Shown here: positions 26,882-62,006 of the stretch, piece by piece
How the letters are laid out: each line of letters begins with the position of its first letter
How positions within the stretch are numbered: the stretch's first letter is position 1
DNA from: Candidatus Kapaibacterium sp.
GTDB taxonomy: Bacteria; Bacteroidota; Ignavibacteria; Kapaibacteriales; UBA2268
Direction: 5' to 3'
DNA: 64,000 bases
Assembly: GCA_963665665.1 (NCBI GenBank)
Contig: OY762428.1
Location: forward strand, 3,616,001 to 3,680,000
The notes under the pieces: generated by a model
Seen by the model: only the letters and a program-made list of their open reading frames with translations
The model's database searches: none
Told to the model about the DNA's origin: nothing
Made by a program: the position numbers and the translations under genes

Positions 26882-26939
26882 GAAACTACTATGATGAAAC
26901 TGATTTGAAAAATTGATAATTATATTTAACGGGGATCCT

Positions 26940-37100: not shown

Positions 37101-40100
37101 ATCGGCACTGCATCCAGCAGGTATCCCATAACACAGTATGATGTTGCTTATATCGGAAATAACCGCTACGTTGATCTTGATGCAAATCTTGGTACCAATT
37201 ATCTTTATTCAGGTGTATCTAATGATTATTTTGGTCCGGCTATAAATGTTGAAAATACCGGGGAACTTTATCTTCACAATCATGTAATACGCGGAGTAGG
37301 TTTTACAGCAAAGAAGGGATCGAAAGTTGTTATTGGCTCAAGGGACGGCATTACTCTGAGTAATACTCGCGGCAATATAATGTCTCTTACAAGGACTTTC
37401 GAAGACAGTATTAATGTTGTGTATACTGCCGAGGGTTATACCCCAAGGTGCAAGTATGGCGATCAAACTGGCAGAAACACTCAGTATTATGATGTCAGGG
37501 ACTGGTATGCCGATAGTAGATATACTGAAAGAGTTACAATGCAGGATGCCAGTTCGGATACAATAATGGATAACCAGAGCGGTTCTGATTTCAGGACGAG
37601 AGGGTATTTCTATTTTGCTGATATTACCGCAACAGTTACTTCGGGTAGCCAATATAGATTTTTCCTTGAGCCGGATGACAATGGATCAAGAAGGTGGAAA
37701 ATTTATGTTGACTGGAACTATGATGGTGATTTTTCTGATTCGAATGAAGAATGGTATGATTCCTACGGTAGCGGGACAAGAAATACGGGATTGCTTACTG
37801 TACCGGCAAGTACTAATCCGGGAGTAACCCGGATTAGAGTTATGAACCGTTATGGATCCAGTGACTATAACTGGTACAGCAGGAGTTTAACTGGAGAAGT
37901 TGAAGATTATACTCTTGTTATTATTAATAACACTCCTGCCATTACACAGGTAACAGGAGACAATTTACCTGATGACTTGTGGTCATTCGAAGCCCGTGCT
38001 GTAAGAACAGCCGGTGGTACAATCGAACTTGGAAATGATCTGCGTATAAGAGATTCTTTGTTATTAACCAGTGGCGTCTTTACAGTGAACGGCCATGATA
38101 TTTCACTTCAGGGTGATTTTATAAATGACTCAACAAATAATTTTATTCATGACAGCCAGACTATAACTTTCTATGGTTCTGATAATGACACAATCAGGGG
38201 AACAAATCCTACCGATTTCTATAATATAGTAATTGATAAAGACAGTGCTGATGTTGTTCTTACTCATTCAACACCTGATACTGATTTTTACACTACAATT
38301 GAAAATAATCTTACTTTTGATTCTGATACTGATTTTTATCTTTCAAATAGTTCTACTATTACTTTATTGTCATCATCGAATTTGAATGCCGGTTCCGGCA
38401 GTTTTGGCAGATACAGGAAATTTGAAGTAAGCGGCGATACTGATGCAGGAATCATTGAAAAACAATTTACAACTGCCGCAGGAGCCAAGGCTTTTGTATT
38501 CCCGGTAGGAATAGATACATTATATAATCCTGCCGACCTGACTTTAACGGGTTCTTATAGCGGAACTCCCACAATAAACCTTCAGCTCCATTACGGACTT
38601 CACCCGGCAAGGCTTGATGACAACATGCTTTTGAAATACTGGACCGTTGACCTTGAAGATATCAGCTCTATCACAGCTAATGATTTTAAGTTTTACTGGG
38701 AAGATTTGGATACTAATGGTGTTAAGGATGATTATATTCCTGCACTTCATTATTCAGGTGGATGGGAAATAAATCTTGGTATCGGCCCCAAAGCACTACC
38801 TTCGCCAATTGAAATAACAAACAGTCCGCTATTTGAAGGAGACTGGACTGCCGGCGATGCTAACGGTTTCTTTAATGGCCGACCCTTCTATTCCATAAAT
38901 ACAGGCGACTGGGATGTTCCTTCAAACTGGTCAAATATTAGTCATGTCGGCCCCCCTTCTTCATATTATCCCAATCAGCTCTATGATCATGATTCTGTTT
39001 ATGTTGACGGTTATACTATTACTTTCAATGTTGATAGTTCTCTTGTTGACCTTGTTGATGTAGGTGGTACATTTGGCACAAATGGTGAACTTACTTTCGG
39101 TAGCAGCCCAACGGAGAAAAAACTTACGTCAAGTTCTACATTTACTGTATATGAAGATGGCATATTGAATGGCACTACCGGTAGTAACAGAATAGATACT
39201 CTTGTGCTTCACGGAGATTTTTATAATTATGCGCAGTCTGCTTCCTCGGGTATAGTTGAACTTTATTCCGGCGCTAATGACTATACAGTATTGAAATTTG
39301 ATTCTCCTGATTCTGTGTCCGCTTCTGGCAATACATACATTGGTGGTGAAGGAGTATGGGGAGACATCGGTTCATATATTCTTGATAAGAATGGCGGGCT
39401 TGCCGATACTCTTATTGTCAATTCGGGTACGTTTGCCGATGCTACAGTTGCTTCGCCAGGTGACCTTGTTTACTACCCGGAACAGGGTGTTTTAAAGCTT
39501 AATGTAAATAATACATTGTCTGTAAGTAACGGAAATAACCCCGTACAAATGTCTCCTTTCACCGGTTTTGATGTTGCGGCAGGTGTAGTATCTTCATCAT
39601 CAACCCTGACAACCGATGTTAACACAACTATTCATGTTGACGGTGGTGATTTCCTTGTTGGTGATGCTGCCGGAGAATCCCTAATCTATAAAACCGGGAC
39701 ACATTTTGAACTTATCGACGGGACGCTTGATATTGCCGGCGCTTTCAAGAAATTTAATACCAATTCCCTTATAGATTTTTCCATGACATCAGTTGGTGCG
39801 GTCCGGGTTCTTAACCAGGGAGTATTGAGTTCTTCCGAGATTGGATTTGATATAACAAACGCATCATCATCATTTTCTATGGATGGCGGAAGGATAATTA
39901 TTGCCAATGGTACTGTTGGCGCTAATGCCGACTTTGAAGTTAATGCCCAGAACGGCACTGGTATGCTCGGTGGAGAAATTCAATCCGGCGACGGCACAAC
40001 TCCCGGCGCAGCGATAATAAAAATTGCAGGATCAATGCCCGTTTGGGACCTTCACGCCGTTGGAAATGCAAGTACAGATGTTGTAACCCAGATCACTGAA

Positions 40101-43070
40101 GAGACTTTTTATATTAATAATGACCTGATAATTGATAATATTAATACCTTTGAAACAAGAGGTAATACAATCGACCTGTCCGGAGACCTGTTAAATTCCG
40201 GTGTTTTCGATGCAATCAATTCTGCCGATGCAACAAGCCCCAGAATGCTTATACTTAGCGGTTCAAGCAATACTCAGACCCTATATAATGCTCAGGCAGG
40301 CGGCCTTGAGCTTTATAACCTCAGGGTAGATAAATTGGGGGGAGACGTTCTTCTTGGCCAGGCTCCCGGTGATAATTCTAATCTGCTAATAAGGAATATT
40401 CTTGAATTTACGAATGATAACTATTCTGTAATTGATTCAAGAACAAACGGGCTTTACGTGGAAATGGAACCCGATGCGGGTTCGGTTCCCCAGATAATCA
40501 GAAACGGACTGGGGCATATTTCCGGCAGGCTGTACAGGTATGTTGATACTGATGAACAAAGTGTTGCCTTTGCTGTTGGATCATCAACGGTAACCGAGTA
40601 CAGGCCTGTAGAATTTGAAACTGTTGGAAGCGGTGGAACAGCAGGTTTGGTGGGTGTTATAATGCATGATTTTGATCACCCGCGCCTTGGCGATGCTCTT
40701 GCCAAAACTGATAATAATATTCAGGTGTACTGGAATATTTCCGAAGGAACAGGCTTTGATCTTGATACAAGAACCTTTGATTTAAAAACTTATTTCCTGA
40801 ACCCGGAAGATATTCGCGGCGCTCAGTCTGATACACTGTTCTTCGGACATTTCCTTTACGAACCGCCATGCCCTGACCCTCCGGCAGTATGTCCGGGTGG
40901 CGGAACCTGGCATGAATTAATTTCAATTGATAAGGGGGCAAACTATGTGCGTTCCACTATCAATGACACATTCGGCGATGTAATGATAGCTGAAGCTGAC
41001 GGTGTAACATTTTACAGCATTAATGATGGTAACTGGAATAATGCAGCCAATTGGTCAACAGTCGGGTATGAAAGTGCTTCCAATCCTTACGGACGTTACC
41101 CCGGAGAGGCCGGTAATACAAGTGATAAGGCAAGGGTTGGTAACGATAAAAAGATTACAGTTCCTGTAGGTATACTTCCGAATGTAAGGACGTTGATTGT
41201 AGAAATGTATAACTCACAACCCGGAAAATTATATATTGAAGGTAATGTCGGGGCTGTAAGGGGAATATCCTTTGCTCTCAGGGACAGTTGTACTCTTGGC
41301 ATTATGCATCTGAACGGTATTGCTCAGAACGGGGTTACAGGTGGCGCCATTCTTATGGATACTCGTGAATATGGTGTTAGTAACTATGTATTTAATTCTA
41401 CTTTTGGTTCCCAGAACTCCGGTAAAGGCCTGCCCGATTCTGTTGCGGCAATAATTGTTGATAATCCGTCAGCGCCGACTAATAATGTTTTTGTTACAGC
41501 TTTCAATGCAGGTTATGACATTCGTGTAAGGGATTCGCTTTCCGTTTTGCAGGGAACTCTTAACTGTGGTAACAGGGACTTCCATCTTTATGGTGATTTC
41601 TCAATATTTGGAAACGGACTTTTTGAGCCTTTGGCTTCGAGTTTCGAGTTCAGCGGCCCCAACTCACATACAATCACTCTTGGGAATAACCAGGGCCTTT
41701 CTTTCTGGAATTGCAATGTCCGCTCGGATGCTGATGTTATTGTTGATCCTGTAACCGGATATGACACAACAACAGCACATATATATATGGAAAACAATCT
41801 GACATTCTCAGGTGATAATATATTTTACGTTCGCGATCAGTGGCGCAAGATTATTATGAGCAACACAGCAAATGTTGTTCAGTCAGTTGCCGATCAGGGC
41901 TATGTTGACGGTACTCTTCTGAAATATCTTGGCCCTAATGCTCTCACAGAATTTTTTGAGATAGGTAACGGAACGGCTTATACGCCTGTTCTTCTTACAC
42001 TCGATAATACCAGCGGAAATGGCACTGCCGGGCAGGTAGAAGCAATAAATATTGCACCCCTGCCTAATGACCCGTCCAATTACCCGGCTGTCGGGCACAG
42101 GATGGATACCGGGCGTTCCATTCCGCGCTACTGGCGCGTGATGCCGACTCCCGGTGGTTCATTTGCTATTGGTGGCCGTACAGCAAATGCACGCCTTCAC
42201 TTCCCCAATTCCGAACTTGGAATTATAAGTGTTCCGAATGCCGTTATCAGGCGGAGGTCGATTCCCACCGAGACGCCTGAATGGCATCAGCGCTCATATA
42301 CAACGCAGATAAACTGGGATGTTGTCAGCCCGACTTCCTGGGCGGAACTTCTTCCGGCAACACCGCCATGGGAAGGTATCGGCGAATTTTATATCGGCGA
42401 GAAATTTGACAGGACATTCTATAGTATAGCGGATGGTGTCTGGGCTGATAATAATACCTGGTCATTGGAATCTCATGACGGTATAGCGCCTCCTCCTGGT
42501 GTATATCCCAACCATGATGAAAACGAACAGGCTGATAACGTTGAAATAGGACTTACAAGCGCTTCCTATACTCACGTGGTTACTCTGGATGTTGACTCTC
42601 CTGATATTGATACGCTCAGGGTGCTTGGCAATTCTGAATTATATATGGATGCCAATACGATTAATTGTTACGATTGCCTGGCACTTAGCAAAGGACTTTT
42701 CCGATTCAGGGATAACGCCACGCTCAGCATTGGTGGTACGAACAATCCTAATGAACTTGTTTTGAAAAATTTCACTGCTTACGACTGGACGGATGCTGAG
42801 GGCAGCAACACAACAATAAAATTTACCGGTACAAATACAATTACTCAAAACCCTTTCGGTAATGCCACGGATATAGGGTATTTCGGCCATGTGGAAGTGG
42901 CCGAGCCGGGCGAGAAAGTTATTAACCAGGCTTTGCGTATTCAGGGGAACCTGCTGATAACAACCGGAGCAACTTTGAATGTTCAAAATATTGATGCATT
43001 GAAGGTAAATCGAAACGTTATCAACTCTGCCAGTTTGAATAATAACGGGGTGATCGAAATAGGCGAATAG
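31170..43070 (+). CDS. Giant (3966 aa) secreted beta-helix/Ig-like repeat protein with an inserted GEVED domain
   Basis: Signal peptide ending SEG-Q; six FYS..GxW..xW modules and six RYW-type beta-sandwich modules; WKIYVDWNYDGDFSD...GEVEDY; ends NNNGVIEIGE; no T9SS CTD. Confidence 0.85.
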   Translation: MKIVNRYTKLYIILSALILLFTVKSEGQIITLSPNATVSLKDGSVLQVNGGLEISSSAGLSQTGSGNIYISGDWTNNGGTFTPGSGTVTFLGSSNASINGTSLTEFYFLHILKNGVAGSDILTLIQNIQVNDDLLGEDGIFRINNGAVRSIEIFGDLIINSDGTFDLASTGSATHNLDLHGDVNNSGIIDLLGSSSVITSFVGVGNADVFGSGPTTEFSRITLSKTNPSDIVHIYPDNFNTQDQFLVLNTGVLRFGGTYSLTKSFFYSYASTPQIPSNVDLWIDNPNVTVTGQSGDLEIQGGLRLSNGTVNVGLASETAGGLIYSNGTGTPSLTVENGYLNINSELAKSAVASTIDFNQSGGEINIGVRGYLNTTHGMFDISSVGSEFIWTGGIIELNRTNRSVTFTDGDYIVGASSGTVTGGTLRIDAQESGNRVYEINTTQPVNEIFMTGTNDPVAQIINTDLTILDDLTIDGSGAGRFDANDYNINIGGDWFNNASTSFTAFAAGSGTVTFDGSADQLIGGTRSTTYNHVTVNKSAGDVILSNTDRETFIEGTLKLDPGSSGLAVIDLNQRDLIMGESASYVSNSGTSVFNFDTTKYIKNSESGGNYNGRLIKQTTSGITARTEMMFPVGTDTVYSPAEIVYLAGQATFGADAYTACKVIPIEHPRVEEPDISLMRYWQMATNDITLDSDLDGDVDVIFHYVGTDVAGNEGEYRVLFFSPSYPDPLGFWTVDPGGIGNDIVDFNNRMFYSLAVKKVDGDWLCGEEDAAQATYFSRQNGDYNDPDTWSKITFGGAASSTAPNKASDRVLIADNDTVTVTANPAEVDVCAVMEDGTLKIAGDYVFTGDTLRVDANGSLIIGNSDGVYLSPTAQGCVQTDFRIFNSNVIYTFIDAPVTKSGTGNALPTQLRSIVVDKSSGDTLLLEKQFAITDSLVLIDGALDVGSYSINGNSAGRTFSMYDGELIIRNQYPTNYLDNTFTAGRITFDGTGNATIPSSGSTPGVDQYYDLKISGQRDSTVITFQSAGQINIINDFDISTIVFTGGLSERFQTDGSTVNFAKSGGVQDIQCRPASPPDSIVNLEYFNLLITGTGTKQLYTAAGTPTFVVRNDLTLSSSTFSSNGYNLEVNGDWVNTGSLFDPGTDGVIMRSPVFSLTNTISSRDTSENPFYNLLIGGEGIVEPNDDLYVMNDFAIEANSNFSLSTTTFTLEGDWTNYGGSFSSASFSTVHFNGSSTQNMTKSDAGNEEFWDVFISNPNHVDATGIGTSSDNGFVINNYIELDGGNLITRGRHATSYGAIGRPGANPGHIDGELRKIMDTATTSEIFEVGYGSQYTPARLSFNGSGGSSGLVGVASDTITTATSPISWDNLNPDNILPAGSEMSLDKHVARQWTLSNPGGIFAIGSNRNYDFTGYFINPGDFRNGADPDYFELRLWNGSVWTAPDRFANPLTGTRNSDNSTYRMLEEFGTIILGEPDKYSFYSIYDANWGVNTSWSTQSYGGPASDIPPNTDCKVYIGDSKVITMEANKTNNGIVTIDTSGTLLCETYVLSGGVGSEFILGREGALGIGSADGIRASGAFGNIQTDSRDFNENTHNRGHFIYTSGLNQTQADEALPITIATLRVNKTSNTVTNNRSAIIITDSLHLENGTYEAGANISLLGNFYREDGSTFDPSTNSFTVEGTSGQFFTNSSTSLTIDFYNLQIEKEAGEGILTLNDNTPIKIENNLLFAPANESIIDGQGHSWNYVELPNGATLTRAGSGHIFGELRKYIPAGNTSDIDFEVGDTTFFTPLRFNFDDTGGTAGLIGVNSIQGAHPNMTDTDCPIDPARYIPRYWRTTRPGGSGFAVGTRSYTLRSTFIDPDDLGTIDHPTCTETGYWRGTTESWQALRPNTTNGNFAYACSDTRFILGDIDYDGSMTTNLANDIPSDSTLGSTYTFADGSLLLADYVVGNQNSGRTTIFYSRQDGDWTDPNTWSEDSYIGTASSRYPITQYDVAYIGNNRYVDLDANLGTNYLYSGVSNDYFGPAINVENTGELYLHNHVIRGVGFTAKKGSKVVIGSRDGITLSNTRGNIMSLTRTFEDSINVVYTAEGYTPRCKYGDQTGRNTQYYDVRDWYADSRYTERVTMQDASSDTIMDNQSGSDFRTRGYFYFADITATVTSGSQYRFFLEPDDNGSRRWKIYVDWNYDGDFSDSNEEWYDSYGSGTRNTGLLTVPASTNPGVTRIRVMNRYGSSDYNWYSRSLTGEVEDYTLVIINNTPAITQVTGDNLPDDLWSFEARAVRTAGGTIELGNDLRIRDSLLLTSGVFTVNGHDISLQGDFINDSTNNFIHDSQTITFYGSDNDTIRGTNPTDFYNIVIDKDSADVVLTHSTPDTDFYTTIENNLTFDSDTDFYLSNSSTITLLSSSNLNAGSGSFGRYRKFEVSGDTDAGIIEKQFTTAAGAKAFVFPVGIDTLYNPADLTLTGSYSGTPTINLQLHYGLHPARLDDNMLLKYWTVDLEDISSITANDFKFYWEDLDTNGVKDDYIPALHYSGGWEINLGIGPKALPSPIEITNSPLFEGDWTAGDANGFFNGRPFYSINTGDWDVPSNWSNISHVGPPSSYYPNQLYDHDSVYVDGYTITFNVDSSLVDLVDVGGTFGTNGELTFGSSPTEKKLTSSSTFTVYEDGILNGTTGSNRIDTLVLHGDFYNYAQSASSGIVELYSGANDYTVLKFDSPDSVSASGNTYIGGEGVWGDIGSYILDKNGGLADTLIVNSGTFADATVASPGDLVYYPEQGVLKLNVNNTLSVSNGNNPVQMSPFTGFDVAAGVVSSSSTLTTDVNTTIHVDGGDFLVGDAAGESLIYKTGTHFELIDGTLDIAGAFKKFNTNSLIDFSMTSVGAVRVLNQGVLSSSEIGFDITNASSSFSMDGGRIIIANGTVGANADFEVNAQNGTGMLGGEIQSGDGTTPGAAIIKIAGSMPVWDLHAVGNASTDVVTQITEETFYINNDLIIDNINTFETRGNTIDLSGDLLNSGVFDAINSADATSPRMLILSGSSNTQTLYNAQAGGLELYNLRVDKLGGDVLLGQAPGDNSNLLIRNILEFTNDNYSVIDSRTNGLYVEMEPDAGSVPQIIRNGLGHISGRLYRYVDTDEQSVAFAVGSSTVTEYRPVEFETVGSGGTAGLVGVIMHDFDHPRLGDALAKTDNNIQVYWNISEGTGFDLDTRTFDLKTYFLNPEDIRGAQSDTLFFGHFLYEPPCPDPPAVCPGGGTWHELISIDKGANYVRSTINDTFGDVMIAEADGVTFYSINDGNWNNAANWSTVGYESASNPYGRYPGEAGNTSDKARVGNDKKITVPVGILPNVRTLIVEMYNSQPGKLYIEGNVGAVRGISFALRDSCTLGIMHLNGIAQNGVTGGAILMDTREYGVSNYVFNSTFGSQNSGKGLPDSVAAIIVDNPSAPTNNVFVTAFNAGYDIRVRDSLSVLQGTLNCGNRDFHLYGDFSIFGNGLFEPLASSFEFSGPNSHTITLGNNQGLSFWNCNVRSDADVIVDPVTGYDTTTAHIYMENNLTFSGDNIFYVRDQWRKIIMSNTANVVQSVADQGYVDGTLLKYLGPNALTEFFEIGNGTAYTPVLLTLDNTSGNGTAGQVEAINIAPLPNDPSNYPAVGHRMDTGRSIPRYWRVMPTPGGSFAIGGRTANARLHFPNSELGIISVPNAVIRRRSIPTETPEWHQRSYTTQINWDVVSPTSWAELLPATPPWEGIGEFYIGEKFDRTFYSIADGVWADNNTWSLESHDGIAPPPGVYPNHDENEQADNVEIGLTSASYTHVVTLDVDSPDIDTLRVLGNSELYMDANTINCYDCLALSKGLFRFRDNATLSIGGTNNPNELVLKNFTAYDWTDAEGSNTTIKFTGTNTITQNPFGNATDIGYFGHVEVAEPGEKVINQALRIQGNLLITTGATLNVQNIDALKVNRNVINSASLNNNGVIEIGE

Positions 43071-43340: not shown

Positions 43341-45938
43341 ATGAAAAAACGGTATTTTTACAATTCTATGTTGTCCGCACTGGCAATGCTCATATTAGTT
43401 GGCATGAGCAGCGAGGCTTTCGGGCAGACATTTATTAACCAGGGATCTGGTCAGGTTACTAACAGCGGATGTTTTAAGTTCAACACCGCCAGTGGTGAAC
43501 TGCAGAACAATGTCGGGACTGGCGATGATACCCAGACGATAATCAATAACAGCAGCGGTACAATTACTTTCATGGGGCAGGTGGTTACACCAGTGTTCAC
43601 TGGAACCAACCCAATTGGTACGGATAACAACCTTGATCGTATTCAAGGTTCTGTTCGCTATATAAATGATGATGCCGGTGGAAATGTTTATCTTTATGGT
43701 TATGGTGGCGCGGCCGATGCCACATACTACACAAATTTGACTCTTGATGGCCAATCAGCCAAATGGATTCCTGATAATGTGTACGTTGGTGGTGCTTATG
43801 AAAACAACTATCTTACTTCAGGAAGTCGTTCTTATACTGGAACTTTCTACTATGATGGTTCAATTGCTCAGACAATTGCCCCTGAAAATTCTAATTCAGG
43901 TAATTTAAACAGATATAATAATATGGATTTGTCCGGTGGCGGTACAAAAACTATTGCTTATGATGGAACAAATCTTCAGGGTGAAGTATATGTGATTAAT
44001 GAAGTTAATCAGGATGCCACATCCGCATTAAATGTATATGATGACTTCTATGTTGGTCATGCAAGTGGTACCGGCGGTACTTTTGCAGGAAATGTAACAG
44101 TTGGACAGGGTGGCCAGGCTGGTAATATTGACATGGGATTTGGTGACTATGGATTTACCGGTACTAATGTAACAATTGCAAATGGTACCTTTGAACTTGT
44201 TGGAACAGGTAGTTCCTCCTTCAGCGCTGCTGTAGCAATTAACAGCGGTTCATTTACTGTTACTAATACAACCTCCGGCGATCCTTATGCGCTATTTGCC
44301 AGCACAGTTAATGTAGCTGACGGTGGTACGCTTGGTACACAGGATGGAGCAAATGGTGATATCGCTATTGGCACAGCAGGAAGTTTAACTTTAGCTAATG
44401 CTGCCGGTGCTGTTTTAAATCTTGGTACAGGTACTGATATGATAGTTACAGGTAGCTTTACTAACGGTTTGGCTGCCCGTACCAATATGACTTTCGGTGA
44501 CGGATCCAACATGATCTATAATGCTGCCGGAGCTCAGACTGTTGTAAGTACTGCTTCTACAAATCCTTATTCAAACTTGTTTGTTGAAGGTGGGGGTACC
44601 AAAACTCTGGATGCAAATACTAATCCGATGGCTTATGTTGATGATAACTTTGGTATTGGTACATCAACTTATGCCGGTAATGTTGCATTTACTTCAAATC
44701 AGTCCGGTACTTTCACATTTGATGATCTTACTGACTTTACATATAATGCACTTGTAATGAATACGGGAACTGCAACATACCAGGGAACTTCTGAAGTTGA
44801 AGGTAACTTCCGCCGTGGTTCTATAACCGGTAAATTAATGGCTGATGACCAGTTATATACATATAACAATACTGAAACACAGTTGGCATTTGCAAATGCA
44901 CCGGCATTAAATGATTATATGCAGCTTCATGTTGAAGGTGGGCAGTATCCGTCAACAACATATATTGATGCTCCTGATTTAGTCAATGATCCTAACGAAG
45001 ACGATGTCAATAGGCTTTGGGTAACTCATACTGGTTCAAGTGATGGTTCAGTAGAAATTAATACACTCCGCCTTGCATTCCTTGCTTCCGAAGCAACAGA
45101 TGTTGACAGAACAGTAATGCGCGCCCTTGAGGGTACTAATGTTTCTGACGGTAATGCCAATCGTGAGGAAAAACTTAACATGCATTATGCTGCCGGCCAA
45201 ACTAATGGTACAAGTGGCTCTTGGGAATATTTTCAGTTGACAACAACCGGTGATGCTACGCCTTCTCCTTTAGCAATGGTGGGAACAGGTGCATCTGCTG
45301 CTGCCTTGCAGCCAAGATATAGCTTCCAGAATCTTGGTCAGGGTTCAGCTATAGCTCTTACAGATATGGAAAACTATCTAATCACAATTGCAAACGGTCG
45401 TTGGTCTTCAGACGATACATGGGATGAAGGTCGTCCACCGATGTCAACAGAACATGCAATCGTCCGTCACCTCGTATTTACAGGTATGCAGGGTGCTAAC
45501 ATTCTCGGTTCTACCGGTGTGACGACGTCTGAGGCTGAGGTCAATGGTGTTACCACTGTTGGTGATGTTGTTTACCTTGCCAAGAGCGTTGAGATCACGA
45601 ACACTTCTTATTCTGGTGCCAATCCTAATAACGTAGCACTCGTGTTCAACAATATTGATACAGATGCTGATGCTGGTGCGGTTAACCCGGCAAATGCAGT
45701 CTTCGCATTTGGTCAGGGTACACAGACGAATCCTGGTATGGTTAATAATAACGATGATCCCGGAACTCTTTGGGGTAATAATATTGCTAACTTAACATCT
45801 TATAATGGATTACAGGGTGTTTATACTATGGAATCAGAGTCTCCTGGTTCAAGGACAAATGCCGTCAGAGGTTACCAGATTACTAATAATGGTCGCTTCG
45901 TAATCGGTGCAAATTCTTGTGCTGAGGTTGGCGAGTAA
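43341..45938 (+). CDS. Secreted beta-helix protein, candidate major filament subunit
   Basis: Strong SD ggaggt; signal peptide ending AFG-Q; one RYW-like module (VNRLW) and one GRW..TW module; ends ANSCAEVGE; only two Cys. Confidence 0.8.
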   Translation: MKKRYFYNSMLSALAMLILVGMSSEAFGQTFINQGSGQVTNSGCFKFNTASGELQNNVGTGDDTQTIINNSSGTITFMGQVVTPVFTGTNPIGTDNNLDRIQGSVRYINDDAGGNVYLYGYGGAADATYYTNLTLDGQSAKWIPDNVYVGGAYENNYLTSGSRSYTGTFYYDGSIAQTIAPENSNSGNLNRYNNMDLSGGGTKTIAYDGTNLQGEVYVINEVNQDATSALNVYDDFYVGHASGTGGTFAGNVTVGQGGQAGNIDMGFGDYGFTGTNVTIANGTFELVGTGSSSFSAAVAINSGSFTVTNTTSGDPYALFASTVNVADGGTLGTQDGANGDIAIGTAGSLTLANAAGAVLNLGTGTDMIVTGSFTNGLAARTNMTFGDGSNMIYNAAGAQTVVSTASTNPYSNLFVEGGGTKTLDANTNPMAYVDDNFGIGTSTYAGNVAFTSNQSGTFTFDDLTDFTYNALVMNTGTATYQGTSEVEGNFRRGSITGKLMADDQLYTYNNTETQLAFANAPALNDYMQLHVEGGQYPSTTYIDAPDLVNDPNEDDVNRLWVTHTGSSDGSVEINTLRLAFLASEATDVDRTVMRALEGTNVSDGNANREEKLNMHYAAGQTNGTSGSWEYFQLTTTGDATPSPLAMVGTGASAAALQPRYSFQNLGQGSAIALTDMENYLITIANGRWSSDDTWDEGRPPMSTEHAIVRHLVFTGMQGANILGSTGVTTSEAEVNGVTTVGDVVYLAKSVEITNTSYSGANPNNVALVFNNIDTDADAGAVNPANAVFAFGQGTQTNPGMVNNNDDPGTLWGNNIANLTSYNGLQGVYTMESESPGSRTNAVRGYQITNNGRFVIGANSCAEVGE

Positions 45939-46093: not shown

Positions 46094-48169
46094 ATGAAAT
46101 ACACGAGAAACATACTACTAATTAGTCTTATTCTAATCATTTCCGCATCTGCTGTTGATAGTCAGGTATTGCTTAGAAATGATAAGAAAAATGCTAAGAT
46201 AGTTAATAACGGTACTTTCCGTGTATTGAAAACAGGTTCGATCGTAGGTATGCCCGATACAATTGGTGGAAGGGTAGAATTCATTAGTGATGAAAGAACA
46301 ATGACTCAGGCAGTTCCGAATTCGACTTACAATCAGTTACTAATAACAGGTTCAACGAAAAAATATATTGATTCAGCATGGAATCATAAAACCTTCAACC
46401 CGCTTCGCACCAGGGATTCTCTGATAGTTGATGGCGAAACGGAATTTAATCTTGATTCTGTTGAAGTACATGCACAGGGGCCAATTGCAAATGAAGCCAG
46501 AATCAAGGGACGGAATGACCTTAGAGCAATAAATGAAGTTAATTCTCAGACGATTCAGGGAAAGGGGCTTATCAGAAGGCTTAATATCGATAATCCCCAG
46601 GGCGTTGATGTAGTTAAAGGTGGTGGCTTTAAAATAACCGGGAAATTAGAACTTACCCGCGGGGAGCTTCGCAATGACGCTGATAATAATTTCCATATCG
46701 AGGATTCGGTAAGGATTATCCGCCATACGGGCGCTTCGCTTGCTAATGATCCTGAATTTGACGGCAGGGATATTGCCGTGGAATATGTTGGTGGCGGTTC
46801 TCTTAGTACAGGTCCGGAATTGCCAAATGATTCAACGTTACTTGCCAGCCTGTATAACAAGACATCAGGCGGTGTTTACCTGACTAAATCCGTAACTGTT
46901 AATGATTCGCTGCTTCTTGTTTCCGACATTACTACAAGCCCGAACAGTACTACTTTTAATGATGATATTGTACTTACATATACAAATGACAAATCTCCGA
47001 TATTTACTAATCATGAAGCGGAGATCATCGGTGCTTTCCGAAGAACTAAGATCAGTTTCGACAGCACAAGGGTAATCTTCAATAATCCATATACCTGGGC
47101 TCTCTTTCTAAAGCCGGAGGATGCGAATGGTTCATCTGATATTACATTTCGCGTAAAACCAAAAACATTCCCTCCGTTTTATAAAGGCGAACTTAAGGTG
47201 CGCAGGAGTTTTGAAATCCGTGCCATGGATAGTAACTATGCCAGCATTGAAGAAGGCATAAACATGAAGGTTGGTTACGGCTGGCGTGTTTCAAAAGATA
47301 CGGCTAAGGACGAAAATCACGGGATGCCCTTGCCTGAATTACTATTCCAGCGATGGACAGGCTCGGATTGGTTTGATTACGATAATTCTAAAAAACCGAT
47401 TCTTGATACTCTTCCGGAATGGGCTTATGCCTCGGCCGATATTTCACAATATGGTGATTTTGCAATCGGTTTGCCGGGTGGAATTCAGTTGACACTTGAT
47501 TCCAGAGTTTTGCTTGAAGGGCCTTATCGATATGGATCAATGGCACAGGACCTGAGATTAAAAAATCTTGTTCCTAAAACTCCACCGGATATCTATCCAT
47601 ATAATCTGGATCCTAACCGAAATCTGATTTTCGTGAATCAAATTCCTGATTCCGTTGTTGATTGGATAGTTATGGAATTCAGGCCTTCCTTTACATCAAC
47701 CGACAGGTTCTATCGTACTGCTTTCCTTAGGTTTGACGGCCGGGTAGTTGACCTTGACGGTATATCCCCGGTACTGCTGTCTAAGGGCGGAATTGACTCG
47801 GGTGAGTACTATGTGGCTATTCACCACAGGAATCACCTTGCAGTAATAACTGAAAAGAAAGTTGGCATATATCCTGAAACTGTTCAGAGGGTACTTGATT
47901 TCACCAATCCAAATATACTTATGGGGCGTTTTAGTGCTCTTAAGCCGATCGATGTTACAGAAGAAGGCCGGGCGATATTCGGTATGATAGGCGGTGATAT
48001 AAATGGTGACGGTATTGTTGATGAAAATGATATGATAGGTGTTTGGAGCGATCGGGATTATGAAGGCCAATATCTTAATACCGATACCCGGATGAACGGT
48101 ATTATTCATACCCGGGATTTCAACGTGAGCTGGAACAACCGGGGCCGGGTCAGCAATCTTCCTAAATAA
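46094..48169 (+). CDS. Secreted beta-helix/Ig-like protein with C-terminal LEGPY domain and dockerin-like double Ca-binding loop
   Basis: VLLEGPY, HRNHL, GGDINGDGIVDEND...DTRMNGIIHTRD; the N-terminal half resembles the 865-aa protein. Confidence 0.8.
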   Translation: MKYTRNILLISLILIISASAVDSQVLLRNDKKNAKIVNNGTFRVLKTGSIVGMPDTIGGRVEFISDERTMTQAVPNSTYNQLLITGSTKKYIDSAWNHKTFNPLRTRDSLIVDGETEFNLDSVEVHAQGPIANEARIKGRNDLRAINEVNSQTIQGKGLIRRLNIDNPQGVDVVKGGGFKITGKLELTRGELRNDADNNFHIEDSVRIIRHTGASLANDPEFDGRDIAVEYVGGGSLSTGPELPNDSTLLASLYNKTSGGVYLTKSVTVNDSLLLVSDITTSPNSTTFNDDIVLTYTNDKSPIFTNHEAEIIGAFRRTKISFDSTRVIFNNPYTWALFLKPEDANGSSDITFRVKPKTFPPFYKGELKVRRSFEIRAMDSNYASIEEGINMKVGYGWRVSKDTAKDENHGMPLPELLFQRWTGSDWFDYDNSKKPILDTLPEWAYASADISQYGDFAIGLPGGIQLTLDSRVLLEGPYRYGSMAQDLRLKNLVPKTPPDIYPYNLDPNRNLIFVNQIPDSVVDWIVMEFRPSFTSTDRFYRTAFLRFDGRVVDLDGISPVLLSKGGIDSGEYYVAIHHRNHLAVITEKKVGIYPETVQRVLDFTNPNILMGRFSALKPIDVTEEGRAIFGMIGGDINGDGIVDENDMIGVWSDRDYEGQYLNTDTRMNGIIHTRDFNVSWNNRGRVSNLPK

Positions 48170-48213: not shown

Positions 48214-49548
48214 ATGAAAAAATATTCATACATACTGGTTTTTATTTTTCTCCTCTGTTCTTCAATAGTGTATTCACAGAACAGGGAGATTCTTGGTATT
48301 GTACAGATCGATGAAGTTAACCTGGTGCAGCCTGATACACTGGAATTTGATATTCTTCTGAAAAGAACATCAGACCGATGGGACAGATGGGCTAACGGCA
48401 CATTCCAATTGGAATTTACTGATACAAACTTCAAGCTGGGCCCTTCTGATATGCAGATTGAATACATTTTTAACAGTTCCGATCTGCCGACTCCGCCACT
48501 ATCAGGTGGTGTACTTCCTGTTGATAGTTATATTATAACACCAAGGATTTTAACTGACAGAATCAGTATTACAATAGCCGGACCGGAACTGTATCCTGAT
48601 GCATCTTATGTTCCCATGGATGATAATGGAATAAAGATCGGCACATTCAGAATTTTTTCCAATTTGGGCCAGAAATTATCTGAGTCACTTGGATGGAAAA
48701 TGCCATCGGATTATTACCAGGCATGTGCATATAAACTGAAAAATGATACTATCAGGCCGATAAATATTCCCTGGGCATTTGAAAATGATAATATCGAAAT
48801 GGATAACCTGCGCTCAACCGGCGTTACTTATGAAAGGATTGATACTATTCCACCGCAGATGGTTCTGAAGTATTTTCATGGTGAATATGTCGGCCTTCGA
48901 AAAGTAAGGTTGTGGTGGGAAACTGAAAGAGAGGCTTACAACAAGGGTTTTGTTCTTACCCGTGGAATTAAGCCGCCTTTCGGAGATGACGATGATACTC
49001 AGTTCAATACTCTGATAGCCAGGTTTGACGATGGAATACAGTGGCACAGGGATTCACTTACCGGGCTTGGAACCAAACGCTATGGCCGTGAATATATTTA
49101 TCCTTTCGATACCGTACCATACAGGGGTGAGGAATATTGCTACCTGCTTCAGTATATTGATTTCAATGATTCACTCAGGCATATTCCTTATACTGACGAG
49201 TATGGTGTATATCATGAAAAAGCTATCAGGTGCATACCTATTCCCAATGCTGTTATTTCTGCTGCAGAAGCCCAGCCAAATCCTTTCCGTGAACAAACCA
49301 CCGTGAAATATCTTTTGGATGATAATGTTTTACTGACTGTATCGGTATTCGACCTTCTTGGCAAGGAAGTCAAGAGGCTTATTGATAAGCAGGAGGTTGA
49401 ACTTGGTTGGCATGAGGTTATTTTTAATGCTCCAGTCGAGGAACTAGCCTCGCAGGGCCTTTACCAGATTGTTTTTATTGCTAATCCTATTGACGATCCG
49501 AACGTGGAAATTTCAAAAGCTATCGTTAAAGTGCAGTTGATAAGATAA
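48214..49548 (+). CDS. T9SS type A sorted protein with N-terminal cohesin-like beta-sandwich
   Basis: LEFDILL...ANGTFQLEF, IKIGTFRI; LWWETERE..NKGF Ig domain; QPNPF...VFDLLGKEV CTD. Confidence 0.7.
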   Translation: MKKYSYILVFIFLLCSSIVYSQNREILGIVQIDEVNLVQPDTLEFDILLKRTSDRWDRWANGTFQLEFTDTNFKLGPSDMQIEYIFNSSDLPTPPLSGGVLPVDSYIITPRILTDRISITIAGPELYPDASYVPMDDNGIKIGTFRIFSNLGQKLSESLGWKMPSDYYQACAYKLKNDTIRPINIPWAFENDNIEMDNLRSTGVTYERIDTIPPQMVLKYFHGEYVGLRKVRLWWETEREAYNKGFVLTRGIKPPFGDDDDTQFNTLIARFDDGIQWHRDSLTGLGTKRYGREYIYPFDTVPYRGEEYCYLLQYIDFNDSLRHIPYTDEYGVYHEKAIRCIPIPNAVISAAEAQPNPFREQTTVKYLLDDNVLLTVSVFDLLGKEVKRLIDKQEVELGWHEVIFNAPVEELASQGLYQIVFIANPIDDPNVEISKAIVKVQLIR

Positions 49549-49609
49549 ACTCTTGATAATATTCAATTTCTAATAAATTCCGGTATTTTATAAATTTTCC
49601 GGAGAAATC

Positions 49610-51535
49610 ATGATCCTGAAACGACACTCCTTTTTCTTAATCATTGTATTATATTCTGCATCCTTTACAGGAGCTTTTAGCAAGTTACAGCTCGTATCGC
49701 CTGCAGTAACTGATACGGTTTTTATTGGCGAGAATATTCTGATACAGTGGGAAGGAGATGAAGGCAGGCCGGTTAACCTGGATTATTCAACTGACATGGG
49801 CGCCGAATGGATTAATATTATTCAGGGATATCAGGGTAGTTCTTATTCCTGGGAAGCTCCATTTCTGGAATCAGTTGACATACGCTTCAGGATTACACTT
49901 GATGAACTGATTAAACCATATATTATCTGGGATACTACAGGCTGCCATAACGCAGAAGTAAGAAGCGCCAGAATAAGCGATGACGATGCATTAGTTGTTA
50001 CATCATCCGATGATGATATAATCAAAATATGGGATATTAACTCCAGAACATTGATAGATTCATATACTCTGAGTATGTCGTTAAATCTTTATAATGCACG
50101 TTTCCACCATGGAACAGATTCAATAATTGCTGCAACAAGCAGCGGATTATTTATTTGGGACAGGAATGCCGGCAGCTTTGAATTATTATCCGGAAGTTCA
50201 TTTACTGACCACGTAAGATCCTGTGCGAGCAGTATATATCAGGATATTGCATTTGGCGCAAGCTATGACGGCAGCGTTAAAGGATTTTCTACTTTTGATA
50301 AATCGGAAATCTATAATTTTCCCGAGCCTTCGAATACCGAGCAATATTGTGTGAATTATTCTCCTGACGGTAGTGCGGTAATTCATTCCGGTTACAATGG
50401 CCTGGTATATTTCCGGTATCTGGATTCACCCGATCCTCCTGTTGTTTTAACGGGGCACGGGGTAAACGGCCAGCGGCTGTTGGTTTGGACGGCCTGTGTA
50501 TCACCGGACAACAGCCTTGCAGCTTCAGGTGGGGTAGATAAAACAGTCAGATTATGGGACCTGCAAACAGGCAATGAGATTATTACCCTTGGAAATCACA
50601 GTGGGCAACTCCGCTCTGTTATGTTTCACCCGAATTCACAATATTTATTATCAGCCGGGCTTGGCGACACACTCAGGCAGTGGAGAATGAGCGATTACTC
50701 GGAATTTACCGATGTGGTTATCGATCACAAGGGACAAATACTGGATGCAGCATATACTCTTACCGGCGATTCGATTATCACAGCCGGAAGGGACAATGGT
50801 TTTAAAATCTGGAAAAACTTTGAATTTACAAATGATGCCGACTCCAGTGAACACCAGTTGAGGTACAGGCTCAGGTTTAAAATACCTCACATATATTCTT
50901 CAGTTCTTTCCCTGGAAGAAATACCAATGATTTGCGAAAGAAAAAAGGGCTATCCGGAGATATTATCGCGTCTTCCTGAGATTGATTTCAGAATACTTAT
51001 ACCCAACAGACTTCTGTTTGTGGATATACCAGGAAAGGTTAAATTTTCTCAGTCCAGGAATGATACCCTGATTGATAAACGGGCAGTAGTGCTAAACGAT
51101 ACGGTCTATACATTTGAAGGGCTGGTATTGCAGGGAGACAGAACATCCGAAGAAATAATAATTGAAAGTATTAATATTCCGAACGACAGCATATTTTATA
51201 TTGAAACTGAAGACGGATCCATAAATATAAGAGAAGAGTGTATAGGAGAATCGGGCAGAGCTGTTTCCTTCATGTCCTATGTCCCCGGTATTAATATACG
51301 TCCCAATCCTGTTGGTAATATTCTGCAGCTTGATTTCAAAACTGTTGCCGACGGTATGGTTACAATTGAGTTGTATGATGAAAGAGGTGCAGCAGTTCTT
51401 GAATTATTCAATAGAAACCTAAAGGGTGGAATTTATAGTATTACACGTGAATTGGACTGTTTGATTTCAGGAGTGTATAATGTCCGTATGGTATGCCCTT
51501 CCGGAATATTTAATCAAAAAATGGTAAAATATTAG
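49610..51535 (+). CDS. WD40-repeat protein with T9SS type A sorting domain
   Basis: LDYSTDMGAEW Ig-like domain; GH...SGGVDKTVRLWD WD40 repeats; RPNPV...GVYNVRM CTD. Confidence 0.88.
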   Translation: MILKRHSFFLIIVLYSASFTGAFSKLQLVSPAVTDTVFIGENILIQWEGDEGRPVNLDYSTDMGAEWINIIQGYQGSSYSWEAPFLESVDIRFRITLDELIKPYIIWDTTGCHNAEVRSARISDDDALVVTSSDDDIIKIWDINSRTLIDSYTLSMSLNLYNARFHHGTDSIIAATSSGLFIWDRNAGSFELLSGSSFTDHVRSCASSIYQDIAFGASYDGSVKGFSTFDKSEIYNFPEPSNTEQYCVNYSPDGSAVIHSGYNGLVYFRYLDSPDPPVVLTGHGVNGQRLLVWTACVSPDNSLAASGGVDKTVRLWDLQTGNEIITLGNHSGQLRSVMFHPNSQYLLSAGLGDTLRQWRMSDYSEFTDVVIDHKGQILDAAYTLTGDSIITAGRDNGFKIWKNFEFTNDADSSEHQLRYRLRFKIPHIYSSVLSLEEIPMICERKKGYPEILSRLPEIDFRILIPNRLLFVDIPGKVKFSQSRNDTLIDKRAVVLNDTVYTFEGLVLQGDRTSEEIIIESINIPNDSIFYIETEDGSINIREECIGESGRAVSFMSYVPGINIRPNPVGNILQLDFKTVADGMVTIELYDERGAAVLELFNRNLKGGIYSITRELDCLISGVYNVRMVCPSGIFNQKMVKY

Positions 51536-51842: not shown

Positions 51843-53612
51843 TTATACTCTCTGGCGTTTTATATATGTAGTATGCAGCAATTCGTGTGAACGATGGCTG
51901 AGCGGAGTACCGAGAAACTCTTCGTATATCTGTGTTATTTCAGGGTTCTCGTGTGATTTCCTGAGTGCTTTGCCTTCGTCTTCTTTATAAATTGCTTCGA
52001 TCCTTTTCTTCCTGATTTCGTCGGTTGTAAACCTTGGCTGGCCACCGCCGCCAATACAGCCGCCGGGGCATGTCATTACTTCAACGAAATGGAAAGGTTC
52101 GCCTTTCTTTGACATCTGGATAACTTTCTCGGCGTTGGCAAGGCCGTGGGCCACAGCAACTTTGGCTTCAACTCCTTCAAGGAAGTCCCAGTCGGGTTTG
52201 CAATTTTCAAAGGTAAGGGCTGCTTTTTTAACACCTTCAAGGCCCATGATAGGCTCAACGTGAAGGCCTTCTGTCGGGAGTTCCCTGCCTGTTACCAGTT
52301 CGTAAGCCGTTCTGAGGGCAGCTTCCATAACACCGCCTGTGTTTGCAAAGATGTCGGCTGCGCCGGTTGATGCACCAATGGGAGAATCCATCTTGCTGTC
52401 TGGAAGAAGATTGAAATCGATACCTGTTTGCTTGATCATTTTTGCAAGCTCGCGGGTAGTAATAACATAATCAACGTCGCGGATACCGCTGTCGTTCATT
52501 TCGTCACGCTGATTTTCGTATTTTTTGGCGGTACATGGCATAACAGAAACAACAATGATCTCTTCGATATCCTTAGCAACTTTTTCTCTGAAGTATGTTT
52601 TAGCAACAGCGCCGAACATCTGCTGTGGAGATTTACAGGATGAAAGATTATCAAGCATTTCCGGATGATAATATTCAGCGTATTTAATCCATGCCGGACA
52701 GCAGCTTGTATATTGCGGAAGGGCAACATCTTCTTTTTCTTTCAAAGCTTTTTTCAGCCTCATGAGAAGTTCAGTACCTTCTTCCATAATAGTAAGGTCA
52801 GCCGCAAAGTTTGTATCGAAAATTTTATCGAAACCAAGATGCCTGAGTGCAGTTGTCATTTTTCCGGTTACGAGCGTGCCGGGGGCATAGCCGAATTCTT
52901 CGCCAAGGGCTGCCCTGATTGCCGGAGCTGTCTGGACGAGAACCAATTTTTTAGGATCGTCTATTGCTTCCCATACTTTTTCGACCTGGCTTTTCTCGCT
53001 GATGGCACCAACCGGGCAAACAGCAGCGCACTGGCCACACTGTACGCAGGCCACGTCATCAAGATTACTGGCAAAAGCCGGTCCTATTGTAGAGCTGAAT
53101 CCGCGTCCCTGTGCAAACAAAGCTCCAACGCCCTGAATTTCAACACAAACCGATACGCAACGGCGGCATTTGATACATTTTCCATTGTCGCGAACCAGAG
53201 CGGGAGTTGAATCGTCAATGAATGAAGAAGCTCTTTCGCCTTCATATCTTACATTTTCGATACCGAGTTCGTTTGCAATAGTCTGAAGCTCGCAGTCGTT
53301 GTTGCGGTCGCAAGTCTGGCAGTCGCCGCAATGCTCGCTGAGCATAAGTTCAACAACAGTTCTGCGCGCTTCGCGAACTCTTTTAGTATTAGTTTTAACT
53401 TTCATTCCTTCATTAACAAGCGTAGCGCATGAAGCTGCCAGAGCTTTGCCGCCTTCTATCTCCACAAGGCAAACCCTGCAGGCGCCTTTTGGTGGCATAT
53501 TCGGTATATGGCAAAGAGTAGGAATCCTTACGCCGGCCTGTTTGGCTGCATCGAGTACAGTAGTTCCTTCGGGAACCTGTATTTCGACGTTATTTATATT
53601 TACGTTTACCAT
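51843..53612 (-). CDS. hydA: [FeFe]-hydrogenase catalytic subunit (group A, M3 architecture)
   Basis: H-cluster motifs TSCCPAW, MPCTAKKYE and EVMTCPGGCIGGGGQP; N-terminal 2Fe-2S, His-ligated 4Fe-4S and 2x4Fe-4S domains. Confidence 0.96.
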   Translation of the reverse strand: MVNVNINNVEIQVPEGTTVLDAAKQAGVRIPTLCHIPNMPPKGACRVCLVEIEGGKALAASCATLVNEGMKVKTNTKRVREARRTVVELMLSEHCGDCQTCDRNNDCELQTIANELGIENVRYEGERASSFIDDSTPALVRDNGKCIKCRRCVSVCVEIQGVGALFAQGRGFSSTIGPAFASNLDDVACVQCGQCAAVCPVGAISEKSQVEKVWEAIDDPKKLVLVQTAPAIRAALGEEFGYAPGTLVTGKMTTALRHLGFDKIFDTNFAADLTIMEEGTELLMRLKKALKEKEDVALPQYTSCCPAWIKYAEYYHPEMLDNLSSCKSPQQMFGAVAKTYFREKVAKDIEEIIVVSVMPCTAKKYENQRDEMNDSGIRDVDYVITTRELAKMIKQTGIDFNLLPDSKMDSPIGASTGAADIFANTGGVMEAALRTAYELVTGRELPTEGLHVEPIMGLEGVKKAALTFENCKPDWDFLEGVEAKVAVAHGLANAEKVIQMSKKGEPFHFVEVMTCPGGCIGGGGQPRFTTDEIRKKRIEAIYKEDEGKALRKSHENPEITQIYEEFLGTPLSHRSHELLHTTYIKRQRV

Positions 53613-53635
53613 TTATCTGACTCCTGAATTATATA

Positions 53636-57294: not shown

Positions 57295-57363
57295 ATTATT
57301 TCCCTTTATAAGAAAACCCAAAAATTTTTTTCCAGAACTATTCGTCGTTTGTAATCTTTTAAA

Positions 57364-59070: not shown

Positions 59071-59358
59071 AATAGTCAATTAATGTCTTTAACAATTAAA
59101 ATAATTTAATAAAATATTAATTAACAATCAATCAAAATTTTAAAATTTCGATGATTTATTTCATTTTCTATCAATTATTATTCCCAATTTTTAAGAAAAA
59201 GTTGTAACTTTCCGTCTATAATTGTTTATCAATGTTATAAGAACAGACGATATTAATTTTTTAAAGATATTTAATTTCAATGGAAACGTATTTAATAATC
59301 CCGATATTATCTTTGACAATCCTTTTGTTTTTTAATAATTATCTATCAGTTATTCAAA

Positions 59359-61959: not shown

Positions 61960-62006
61960 CTTATGGCATTTTTTTTTAAATTGCCAGAAAATTCAGTGAG
62001 AGAAAT

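Follow-up and report, generated by a model that had tools for sequence, protein, structure and literature searches.

A secreted beta-helix protein of Candidatus Kapaibacterium, predicted to stack head-to-tail, with a candidate cysteine pair across the joint

The MID gene and its two cysteines

The window analysed here is a stretch of 64,000 nucleotides from a Candidatus Kapaibacterium sp. genome (assembly GCA_963665665.1, contig OY762428.1, positions 3,616,001 to 3,680,000 of the forward strand); all coordinates below are counted from its first letter. At 43341-45938 on the forward strand it carries an open reading frame (ORF) whose direct translation gives 865 amino acids followed by a stop codon. 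This secreted protein is called MID (P0001; rows labelled P are homologues, and those labelled L are loci from other genomes). An earlier note on this DNA, made from the letters alone, had drawn attention to its two cysteines and proposed that they lock subunits together, head to tail, by an intermolecular disulfide. Indeed, a count over the whole chain finds exactly two cysteines, C44 (context VTNSG-C-FKF) and C860 (IGANS-C-AEVGE), at the codons and in the contexts given in that note. The gene and the parts of its product are the following.

43341..45938, forward strand: MID gene (P0001), stop codon included (ORF list and translation)
43341..43424, forward strand: signal peptide, residues 1-28 (MKKRYF...SEAFG), from the hydrophobic N-terminus, with a putative cleavage site
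43425..43487, forward strand: N-module, residues 29-49, QTFINQGSGQVTNSGCFKFNT, with strands 30-33, 38-41 and 44-47 (DSSP, column conservation, complex model)
43470..43472, forward strand: codon of C44 (translation, residue count), within the interface range 29-49 of the complex model
43722..44702, forward strand: right-handed parallel beta-helix core, residues ~128-454 (VIA-align)
44802..45356, forward strand: middle domain with longer strands, residues ~488-672 (EVxGxxRR...NN...TDVxR motifs; DSSP, hhalign)
45378..45935, forward strand: C-terminal beta-helix-like domain, residues ~680-865, starting at the invariant GRWSxxxTWDxGxxP (conservation, DSSP, complex model)
45873..45935, forward strand: C-module, residues 845-865, YQITNNGRFVIGANSCAEVGE, with strands 846-849, 852-855 and 860-863 (column conservation, complex model)
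45918..45920, forward strand: codon of C860 (translation, residue count), its register set by the flanking pairs 861:45 and 863:47

The sequence reads QTFINQGSGQVTNSGC-FK at C44 and ...GANSC-AEVGE at C860. The signal peptide ends ...SEAFG just before Q29, a column at which the alignment has glutamine in 119 of the 121 homologues. With the mature chain taken to start at Q29, C44 is its residue 16, in agreement with the earlier numbering. Q29 itself (43425-43427) falls within the predicted joint described below; an N-terminal glutamine of this kind is often cyclised to pyroglutamate in Bacteroidota. The closest homologue, P0002, which is 48-52% identical to MID, has both cysteines at the same columns, and the next four (P0003-P0006) have a cysteine at neither. 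The signal peptides of MID and P0002 are mostly identical (82% in the first 40-residue block; window 43341-43433), and the mature chains are 25-65% identical per 40-residue block, a pattern that looks like that of a fast-evolving surface protein following a conserved leader.

A scan of 1.84 billion representative proteins returned 146 relatives of MID at E<=1e-3, mostly of 700-860 residues, and a second scan, which covered every prokaryote species with a single genome, returned 125 encoding stretches. The locus analyses used 80 of these 125, mostly metagenome-assembled genomes of Kapaibacteria, Ignavibacteria, Chlorobiota and Bacteroidota, some with other labels; seven of the 80 have no complete MID ORF and were excluded from the neighbour counts. 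The family alignment has 121 rows, and the column counts, the co-variation of cysteines and charges and the AlphaFold2 (AF2) model are all drawn from these homologues. MID matched no Pfam family at E<=0.1 and no NCBIfam family, phmmer found no paralogue at E<=1 among the ORFs of its own genome, and the family profile had no match below E 0.03 among PDB sequences. A search of the ESM Atlas returned only unnamed Bacteroidota clusters, and full-text literature searches found no description of the family or of its gene row.

The two ends of MID carry matching modules

Both ends of MID share a rung motif, (F/L)-x-N...N-x-G-x-I-(R/K or E)-(F/V). The conserved columns over the 121 rows are N33, G37, N41, G43, I45, K/R46 and F47 in the N-module, and L847, N849, G851, I855, N857, G859, I861, E862, V863 and G864 in the C-module. 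They match one another as follows, with counts out of 121 rows.

Residues 31 and 847: F/L and L/I
Residues 33 and 849: N (90/121) and N (107/121)
Residues 39 and 855: I and I
Residues 41 and 857: N (86/121) and N (109/121)
Residues 43 and 859: G (99/121) and G (99/121)
Residues 45 and 861: I (94/121) and I/L (96/121)
Residues 46 and 862: K/R (93/121) and E (70/121)
Residues 47 and 863: F/M and V/I

C44 and C860 occupy the same place in the motif, directly past the glycine column. The earlier description of the two cysteines as standing at equivalent strand positions is valid family-wide, because the N- and C-terminal columns match across the 121 rows. With C44 fixed, the chance that a second cysteine lies within one residue of the in-register partner is about 3/836 mature positions, or ~0.4%.

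Within the genome, a short hidden Markov model of the N-module run against all ORFs recovered MID alone, and the corresponding C-module model missed even MID itself. A regular-expression scan for the tail motif found MID, the giant protein encoded just upstream and two ORFs elsewhere (168 and 263 residues), which were taken as chance matches. The possibility that the IEVGE tail motif is a sorting signal, of the type IX secretion system (T9SS) or another, was considered and rejected: there is no sorting-domain match, and the motif mirrors the N-terminal rung.

Fold of MID

The AF2 model, built with the 121 homologues, is confident, with a mean local confidence (pLDDT) of 84.1 and a global score (pTM) of 0.70. 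DSSP assigns short-strand rungs to residues 30-480, a domain of longer strands to 488-672 and short-strand rungs again to 705-863. Superposition by VIA-align on a library of 48,161 chains, the outcome of which is a fold class only, places residues ~128-454 on right-handed parallel beta-helices (Z 9.7-8.0, root-mean-square deviation 3.8-5.9 Å over 177-254 residues). The best rows are pectate lyases, tapirin, tailspikes and two-partner secretion (TPS) domains (Z up to 9.7, 3.9-5.9 Å over 177-223 residues); most of the top 20 are beta-helices, and the remainder are leucine-rich-repeat effectors and other solenoids. A Foldseek search of the PDB with the model gave no match at E<=0.001. Since residues ~128-454 match parallel beta-helices, the modelled MID is an elongated protein, as the earlier note had supposed.

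Over the middle domain, the family profile aligns with the 691-residue protein encoded next downstream at an hhalign probability of 87%. The C-terminal domain has invariant residues G686, W688 and P700, and its residues 802, 805, 807, 810, 831 and 843 belong to the interface predicted by the complex model. Two cysteine pairs that MID lacks are common in the family: one at query columns 387 and 434, inside the beta-helix (both present in ~25 of 121 members), and one between the N-module, just before column 43, and an insert near column 152 (~19-21 members).

A predicted head-to-tail joint

The complex model combined mature MID (chain 1, residues 29-865) with an extra copy of residues 29-190 (chain 2), the logic being that a full chain closed on itself should leave the extra fragment without a site. 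The fragment docked on the full chain with an interface score (ipSAE) of 0.76, 0.79 and 0.74, versus 0.00 in all three controls, with 88-92 contacts and a partner pLDDT of 86-88. The interface is formed by residues 802, 805, 807, 810, 831, 843 and 845-865 of chain 1 and residues 29-49, 52 and 72-73 of chain 2, and the lowest-error pairs are 849:33, 848:32, 854:40, 853:39, 863:47 and 861:45. In the model, three strands thus stack on three, parallel and in register, the residue numbers paired at the last strand differing by 816. Because the pairs 861:45 and 863:47 set the register, C860 is modelled as facing C44, and E862 as facing K46, across the joint. The C-terminal end of the full chain took the fragment, and its own N-terminus was not there. 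A dimer model, which the earlier note had named as a check, thus comes out in favour of its proposal: the N-module of a second copy reaches the C-terminal end (ipSAE 0.76) and is not blocked by the chain's own N-terminus. We regard a head-to-tail joint of MID as likely.

Co-variation of cysteines and charges across the joint

A cysteine in the tail (column 856 or later) is present in 15 of the 121 rows, and in 11 of these 15 the N-module (columns 29-52) has one as well. By alignment position the pairs are 44/860 (MID, P0002), 42/858 (P0041, P0060), 40/858 (P0025), 48/864 (P0045) and 49/864 (P0029, P0047, P0139); P0094 and P0100 are misaligned at a duplicated N-module and, when read by motif, also fall at 49/864-865. 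The offsets, 815-818, compare with 816 in the complex model, and the pairs, found at four or more different positions, do not represent a single inherited state. The co-variation of the two cysteines in homologues, which the note had named as a check, is thus found. Among the 106 rows that have no tail cysteine, 33 have one in the N-module, and 21 of these have an internal partner at column 542/543, which leaves 12. Fisher's test gives p = 9e-7 after removal of the N-module cysteines with this partner and 0.003 without removal, neither value taking relatedness into account. The tail cysteine changes at least 10 times on a tree from which the terminal columns were excluded. Among 9-10 independent pairs, the N-module cysteine changes in the same direction in about five, in the opposite direction in none and shows no difference in about four (median p of the sign test 0.03-0.06). 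The tree-based test is consistent with a link between the two cysteines, and its result is borderline.

Cysteines of the MID family come mostly in pairs: the 80 rows with at least one mature cysteine divide into 63 with an even count and 17 with an odd count (p 2e-7). A lone tail cysteine with no known partner occurs 11 residues from the end (NNGC[IVL]N[IV]GG) in MIDs of the L047/L055/L074/L077/L078 group. Charges behave in a similar way. Positions 46 and 862 are basic and acidic, respectively, in 68 of 121 rows; among the 28 rows with a non-basic position 46, just 7 have an acidic residue at 862, and one row is charge-swapped, E with K. Together with the placement of E862 opposite K46 in the model, these counts bear out the salt-bridge pairing of E with K or R suggested in the note.

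The gene row

MID lies in a conserved row of genes. Its neighbours in the window are listed here.

26913..31166, forward strand: 1417-residue secreted protein, head of the row (ORF list, Pfam scan)
31170..43070, forward strand: giant 3966-residue secreted protein directly upstream of MID, with a GEVED domain and 18 cysteines, none in the tail
43005..43067, forward strand: C-module of the giant, its last ~21 residues, ...NSASLNNNGVIEIGE, with V3961 at the place of C860 (read directly)
46094..48169, forward strand: 691-residue protein (D691 type) with an N-module, no C-module, a dockerin-like tail (...NGIIHTRDFNVSWNNRG...) and no cysteine (ORF list)
46163..46234, forward strand: N-module of the 691-residue protein, residues 24-47, QVLLRNDKKNAKIVNNGTFRVLKT, with T41 at the place of C44 (motif-level match only)
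48214..51535, forward strand: 444-residue protein (weak T9SS tail match) and 641-residue WD40 beta-propeller with a T9SS type A sorting domain (Pfam, NCBIfam)

The giant ends NNNG-V3961-IEIGE, a tail motif also found in giants of other genomes, and the 691-residue protein reads KIVNNG-T41-FRV, so that the valine and threonine noted earlier at the partner places are as described. BLASTP of MID against either neighbour was not significant. When the family profile was aligned by hhalign with the last 299 residues of the giant, the GxW...TW motif alone was aligned (probability 20%). This G-x-W-x-x-x-x-T-W motif, which starts the C-terminal domain of MID, is repeated in the giant, for example at residues 1963 and 3752; the GEVED domain of the giant (PF20009, E 2.5e-13) spans residues 2176-2249. 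In the protein scan, relatives with the dockerin-like tail matched MID residues 9-257 (P0067).

The last ~45 residues of the 691-residue protein, like those of its relatives, carry the motif D-x-N-x-D/N-G-I-I-T-T-R-D-F-N-V-S-W-N-N-R-G and then a short basic tail (consensus D-x-N-x-D-G-I-x-T-T-x-D-x-N-x-x-W-N-N-R). This dockerin- or EF-hand-like tail had no Pfam match. Proteins of 1450-1580 residues that combine it with the N-terminal ~200 residues of the D691 type also exist (P0072, P0087, P0092, P0098, P0107, P0108). A lone cysteine of the D691-type protein is seen at L006, L010, L016, L028, L031, L037, L040, L042, L044, L061, L063, L068 and L072. As to the last two genes, the 641-residue product passes TIGR04183 (25.5 bits, cut-off 23), and the 444-residue product lies under the cut-off; their order, 444 then 641, is kept in the compared loci.

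At 26913-51535 of the window (forward strand) and over loci L001-L080, the row consists of an optional giant of 3000-4300 residues, MID, a D691-type protein, a ~440-residue protein ending ..QLIR and a ~640-residue protein. A D691-type gene is directly downstream of MID in 60 of the 64 loci with enough downstream DNA, and a giant (>1000 residues, same C-terminal tail) is directly upstream in 26 of the 55 with enough upstream DNA. Five tandem paralogues (420-550 residues) of the 1417-residue protein, all sharing its C-terminal W-x-G-x-x-W motif, take the place of the giant in L010 and L016.

Some cysteines match across different proteins of a locus. At L023 and L046, MID has C51 together with a ...VCD tail, next to a giant that ends ...VIQLCN. 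At L037 and L072, MID has C57 with NNCGTV.IGD, and the tail of the giant is NNCGVIEIGQ. L026, L033 and L076 have no giant; their MID has cysteines at 45, 328, 370 and 675, and the single cysteine of their 701-residue D691-type protein is at the N-module place of MID C45 (NNGVICNQG versus NNGHVCNNATG). Such matches are explained more readily if the C-module of one chain meets the N-module of another; they amount to three events, and concerted evolution of both tails could mimic the first two. The mature cysteine counts of the giants (10 in L089, 10 in L090, 19 in L091, 19 in L092 and 18 in the window) are equivocal as to parity.

Interpretation and alternatives

We propose that MID is a secreted beta-helix that would stack head-to-tail into a fibre, with C44 and C860 forming an inter-subunit pair, most likely a disulfide; the probability of this reading is put at roughly 0.6. 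The motif common to both ends, the joint with its register, the co-variation of cysteines and charges and the conserved gene row all come out of the computations themselves. According to the proposal, the first three strands (29-49) and the last three (845-865) would be two copies of one rung motif. Subunits would join by parallel, in-register stacking of the C-terminal rung of one MID on the N-terminal rung of its neighbour, so that the beta-helix runs on between subunits and gives a polar head-to-tail fibre. The joint would align N33/N41 with N849/N857, G43 with G859, K46 with E862 and C44 with C860, and a C44-C860 disulfide would make this non-covalent joint covalent. Polymerisation of MID in the cell and an actual oxidation of both thiols are inferred.

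Several observations weigh against this proposal. The pair 860:44 is not among the 25 best pairs listed for the complex model, which include its neighbours only, although both residues are inside the interface ranges. A pass with the complex tool supports binding without showing it: 58 of 80 solved complexes attained its mark, as did 2 of 110 mismatched pairs, a calibration that is only rough with user-made alignments. In the family, four of the 15 rows with a tail cysteine have none in columns 29-52; three of them (P0118, P0123, P0131) end ...GVC or GIC and have a spare cysteine near column 109-110, and the fourth (P0068) has no cysteine in the N-terminal region. The borderline outcome of the tree-based test points the same way. 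Lone cysteines are present in the family, which implies that free thiols are tolerated, and many D691-type proteins have theirs ~145-165 residues from the C-terminus, with no known partner.

Other points bear on the bond more than on the joint. No match to DsbA, Thioredoxin_4, DsbB or VKOR was found in this genome, which is 99.5% complete, whereas control genomes were matched. Beside the operon lies an FeFe hydrogenase cluster:

51843..57321, reverse strand: FeFe hydrogenase cluster, comprising a HydA-like protein of 589 residues, a 1041-residue NuoF-like/pyridine-nucleotide-oxidoreductase fusion and a 186-residue thioredoxin-like 2Fe-2S protein

It marks the organism as an anaerobe, one without a recognisable oxidising pathway. 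Moreover, in-register neighbours on parallel strands make a disulfide of uncommon and strained geometry. Because of the missing Dsb and VKOR matches, the anaerobic host, the lone cysteines and this geometry, the C44-C860 disulfide is held less firmly than the joint, and we favour it only slightly. All computational checks made here support the intermolecular lock proposed in the earlier note, more firmly for its joint than for its bond.

These same points favour a different view, in which the joint is real and has no disulfide, the paired cysteines being reduced, binding a metal across the joint or becoming oxidised only on exposure to oxidants. The strongly even cysteine counts (63 versus 17) speak against it, as do the pairs that arise jointly at several in-register positions and fit direct contact between cysteines better than unrelated free thiols. 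In addition, an extracellular fibre would not need to rely on periplasmic Dsb enzymes. This view is considered rather unlikely.

Co-variation of cysteines within one protein cannot by itself separate contacts within a chain from contacts between chains, and the ~190-residue middle domain between the beta-helical parts could in principle allow the chain to fold back. The N- and C-modules of the same MID would then stack, and an internal C44-C860 disulfide would staple the folded-back monomer. However, the C-terminal end in the complex model takes the extra fragment and not its own N-terminus, and the fragment touches chain 1 at 802-865 only. The giant has a C-module and the D691 type an N-module, and neither has the matching module at its opposite end. 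In L023 and L046, the giants (L089, L090) have a tail cysteine, yet no mature N-terminal cysteine before residue 347/351, and the only cysteine of the D691 type of L026, L033 and L076 is in its N-module. We therefore consider intramolecular closure distinctly unlikely.

Slightly less probable still is an arrangement in which MID would be a single-copy adaptor, with one giant docked on one MID and one MID on one D691-type protein; the cysteine pair of MID would have no partner in this genome. The set in the window is balanced, with two C-modules (giant, MID) and two N-modules (MID, 691-residue protein), and the giants of L023/L046 and L037/L072 do have a cysteine at the tail position of MID. 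Nevertheless, the giant of the window has valine and the 691-residue protein threonine at the partner places, so that C44 and C860 are left as each other's sole possible partners; L020, L022 and L048 present the same situation. Furthermore, no giant is directly upstream in 29 of 55 loci, where the only C-module able to meet the N-module of MID is that of another MID, unless a C-module protein is encoded elsewhere. A mere coincidence, two cysteines near the ends of a cysteine-poor protein with no role at a joint, is very improbable: the exact pair is found in one close homologue only (P0002) and is one evolutionary event by the tree, but in-register placement by chance has the low probability given above (~0.4%), independent pairs occur at other in-register positions in the family and the predicted joint sets both cysteines opposite each other.

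If head-to-tail stacking of MID is accepted, a wider reading of the gene row can be put forward, though tentatively and with less confidence than the stacking itself: in Ignavibacteria, Kapabacteria and Chlorobiota, the row could encode a surface fibre of a new kind, polar and made of three parts, namely the giant, a MID shaft and a D691 terminator. In the shaft, MID would be stacked rung on rung, with joints bolted by disulfides in some lineages. One end would be closed by the giant (3000-4300 residues, C-module only), perhaps a tip adhesin, and the other by the D691 type (N-module and dockerin-like tail), perhaps an anchor to the ~440-residue and OmpA-like partners. Cysteines gained or lost at in-register positions would be natural cross-linking experiments that map every joint.

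Comparison with known fibres

Among known systems, the nearest analogue of MID is the curli fibre (CsgA/CsgB, a functional amyloid), with its beta-solenoid subunits stacked head-to-tail. Curlin is a small protein with a few repeats. MID is like curli in that its C-terminal rung is predicted to dock on the N-terminal rung of the next subunit. It differs in having no curlin repeat (Curlin_rpt) or other Pfam match at E<=0.1, in its length of 865 residues and in its pectate-lyase-like beta-helix, middle domain, dedicated end rungs and natural cysteines at the joint. Its hosts are Ignavibacteria, Kapabacteria and Chlorobiota, whereas those of curli are Proteobacteria, and no Csg family was found among the 15 window proteins scanned (E<=0.1 in one Pfam scan, E<=1e-5 in the other). 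In a study of curli, engineered disulfide cross-links told N/C interfaces from N/N and C/C ones (PMC12345197). The natural cysteine pairs of MID would take the role of those engineered links. MID is predicted to assemble by the same principle as curli, without being a curlin itself.

Bactofilin filaments are non-polar. For bactofilins such as BacM, end-to-end polymerisation of a beta-helical core is reported (PMC4372379), as is predicted for MID. Bactofilins are small and cytoplasmic, whereas MID has a signal peptide, a polar N/C pairing and no Pfam match. Ag43 and other beta-helix adhesins resemble MID as right-handed beta-helical surface proteins, and weak structural matches to Ag43, passengers of the serine protease autotransporters (SPATE), tapirins and TPS domains were obtained. 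Ag43 molecules associate side by side between cells, and the predicted contact of MID differs in being an end-on stacking of rungs. No autotransporter beta-barrel, TPS or TpsB family was matched by Pfam or NCBIfam in MID or the scanned neighbours, and MID, the giant and the 691-residue protein have no match to a T9SS sorting domain (TIGR04183/PF18962 or type B).

In chaperone-usher, type V/FimA and sortase pili, secreted subunits are linked N-end to C-end into a polar fibre, and sortase pili have a covalent lock in addition. MID is likewise predicted to form a polar fibre, N-end to C-end, with a covalent lock possible. Its modelled joint consists of complete rungs stacked on each other, with no donor strand inserted to complete a fold, and no pilin, usher or sortase family was found in MID or the scanned neighbours (Pfam, NCBIfam).

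The matching end modules of MID, with the two cysteines modelled as facing each other, suggest a bacterial surface fibre of a type not described before. If the proposal holds, the Ignavibacteria, Kapabacteria and Chlorobiota of the Fibrobacteres-Chlorobi-Bacteroidetes (FCB) group would build an extracellular fibre by end-on continuation of a beta-solenoid, a principle so far known from curli. The bricks would be large folded beta-helices, with dedicated partners for the ends and a covalent lock in some lineages. The recurrent cysteine pairs would then serve as a testable map of subunit joints, and they suggest a design rule for covalently stabilised beta-helix nanofibres.

Other features of the window

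Two further features lie beyond the hydrogenase cluster.

57988..59079, reverse strand: OmpA-family gene
59359..62636, forward strand: PAS/HisKA_3 kinase with a LuxR-type regulator

Secreted fibre proteins of this genome show paired cysteines despite the lack of a Dsb or VKOR match. The hydrogenase cluster sits between the fibre genes and the OmpA-family and kinase genes; in other genomes, genes for an OmpA-like protein of ~460 residues and a protein of ~730 residues directly follow the row.

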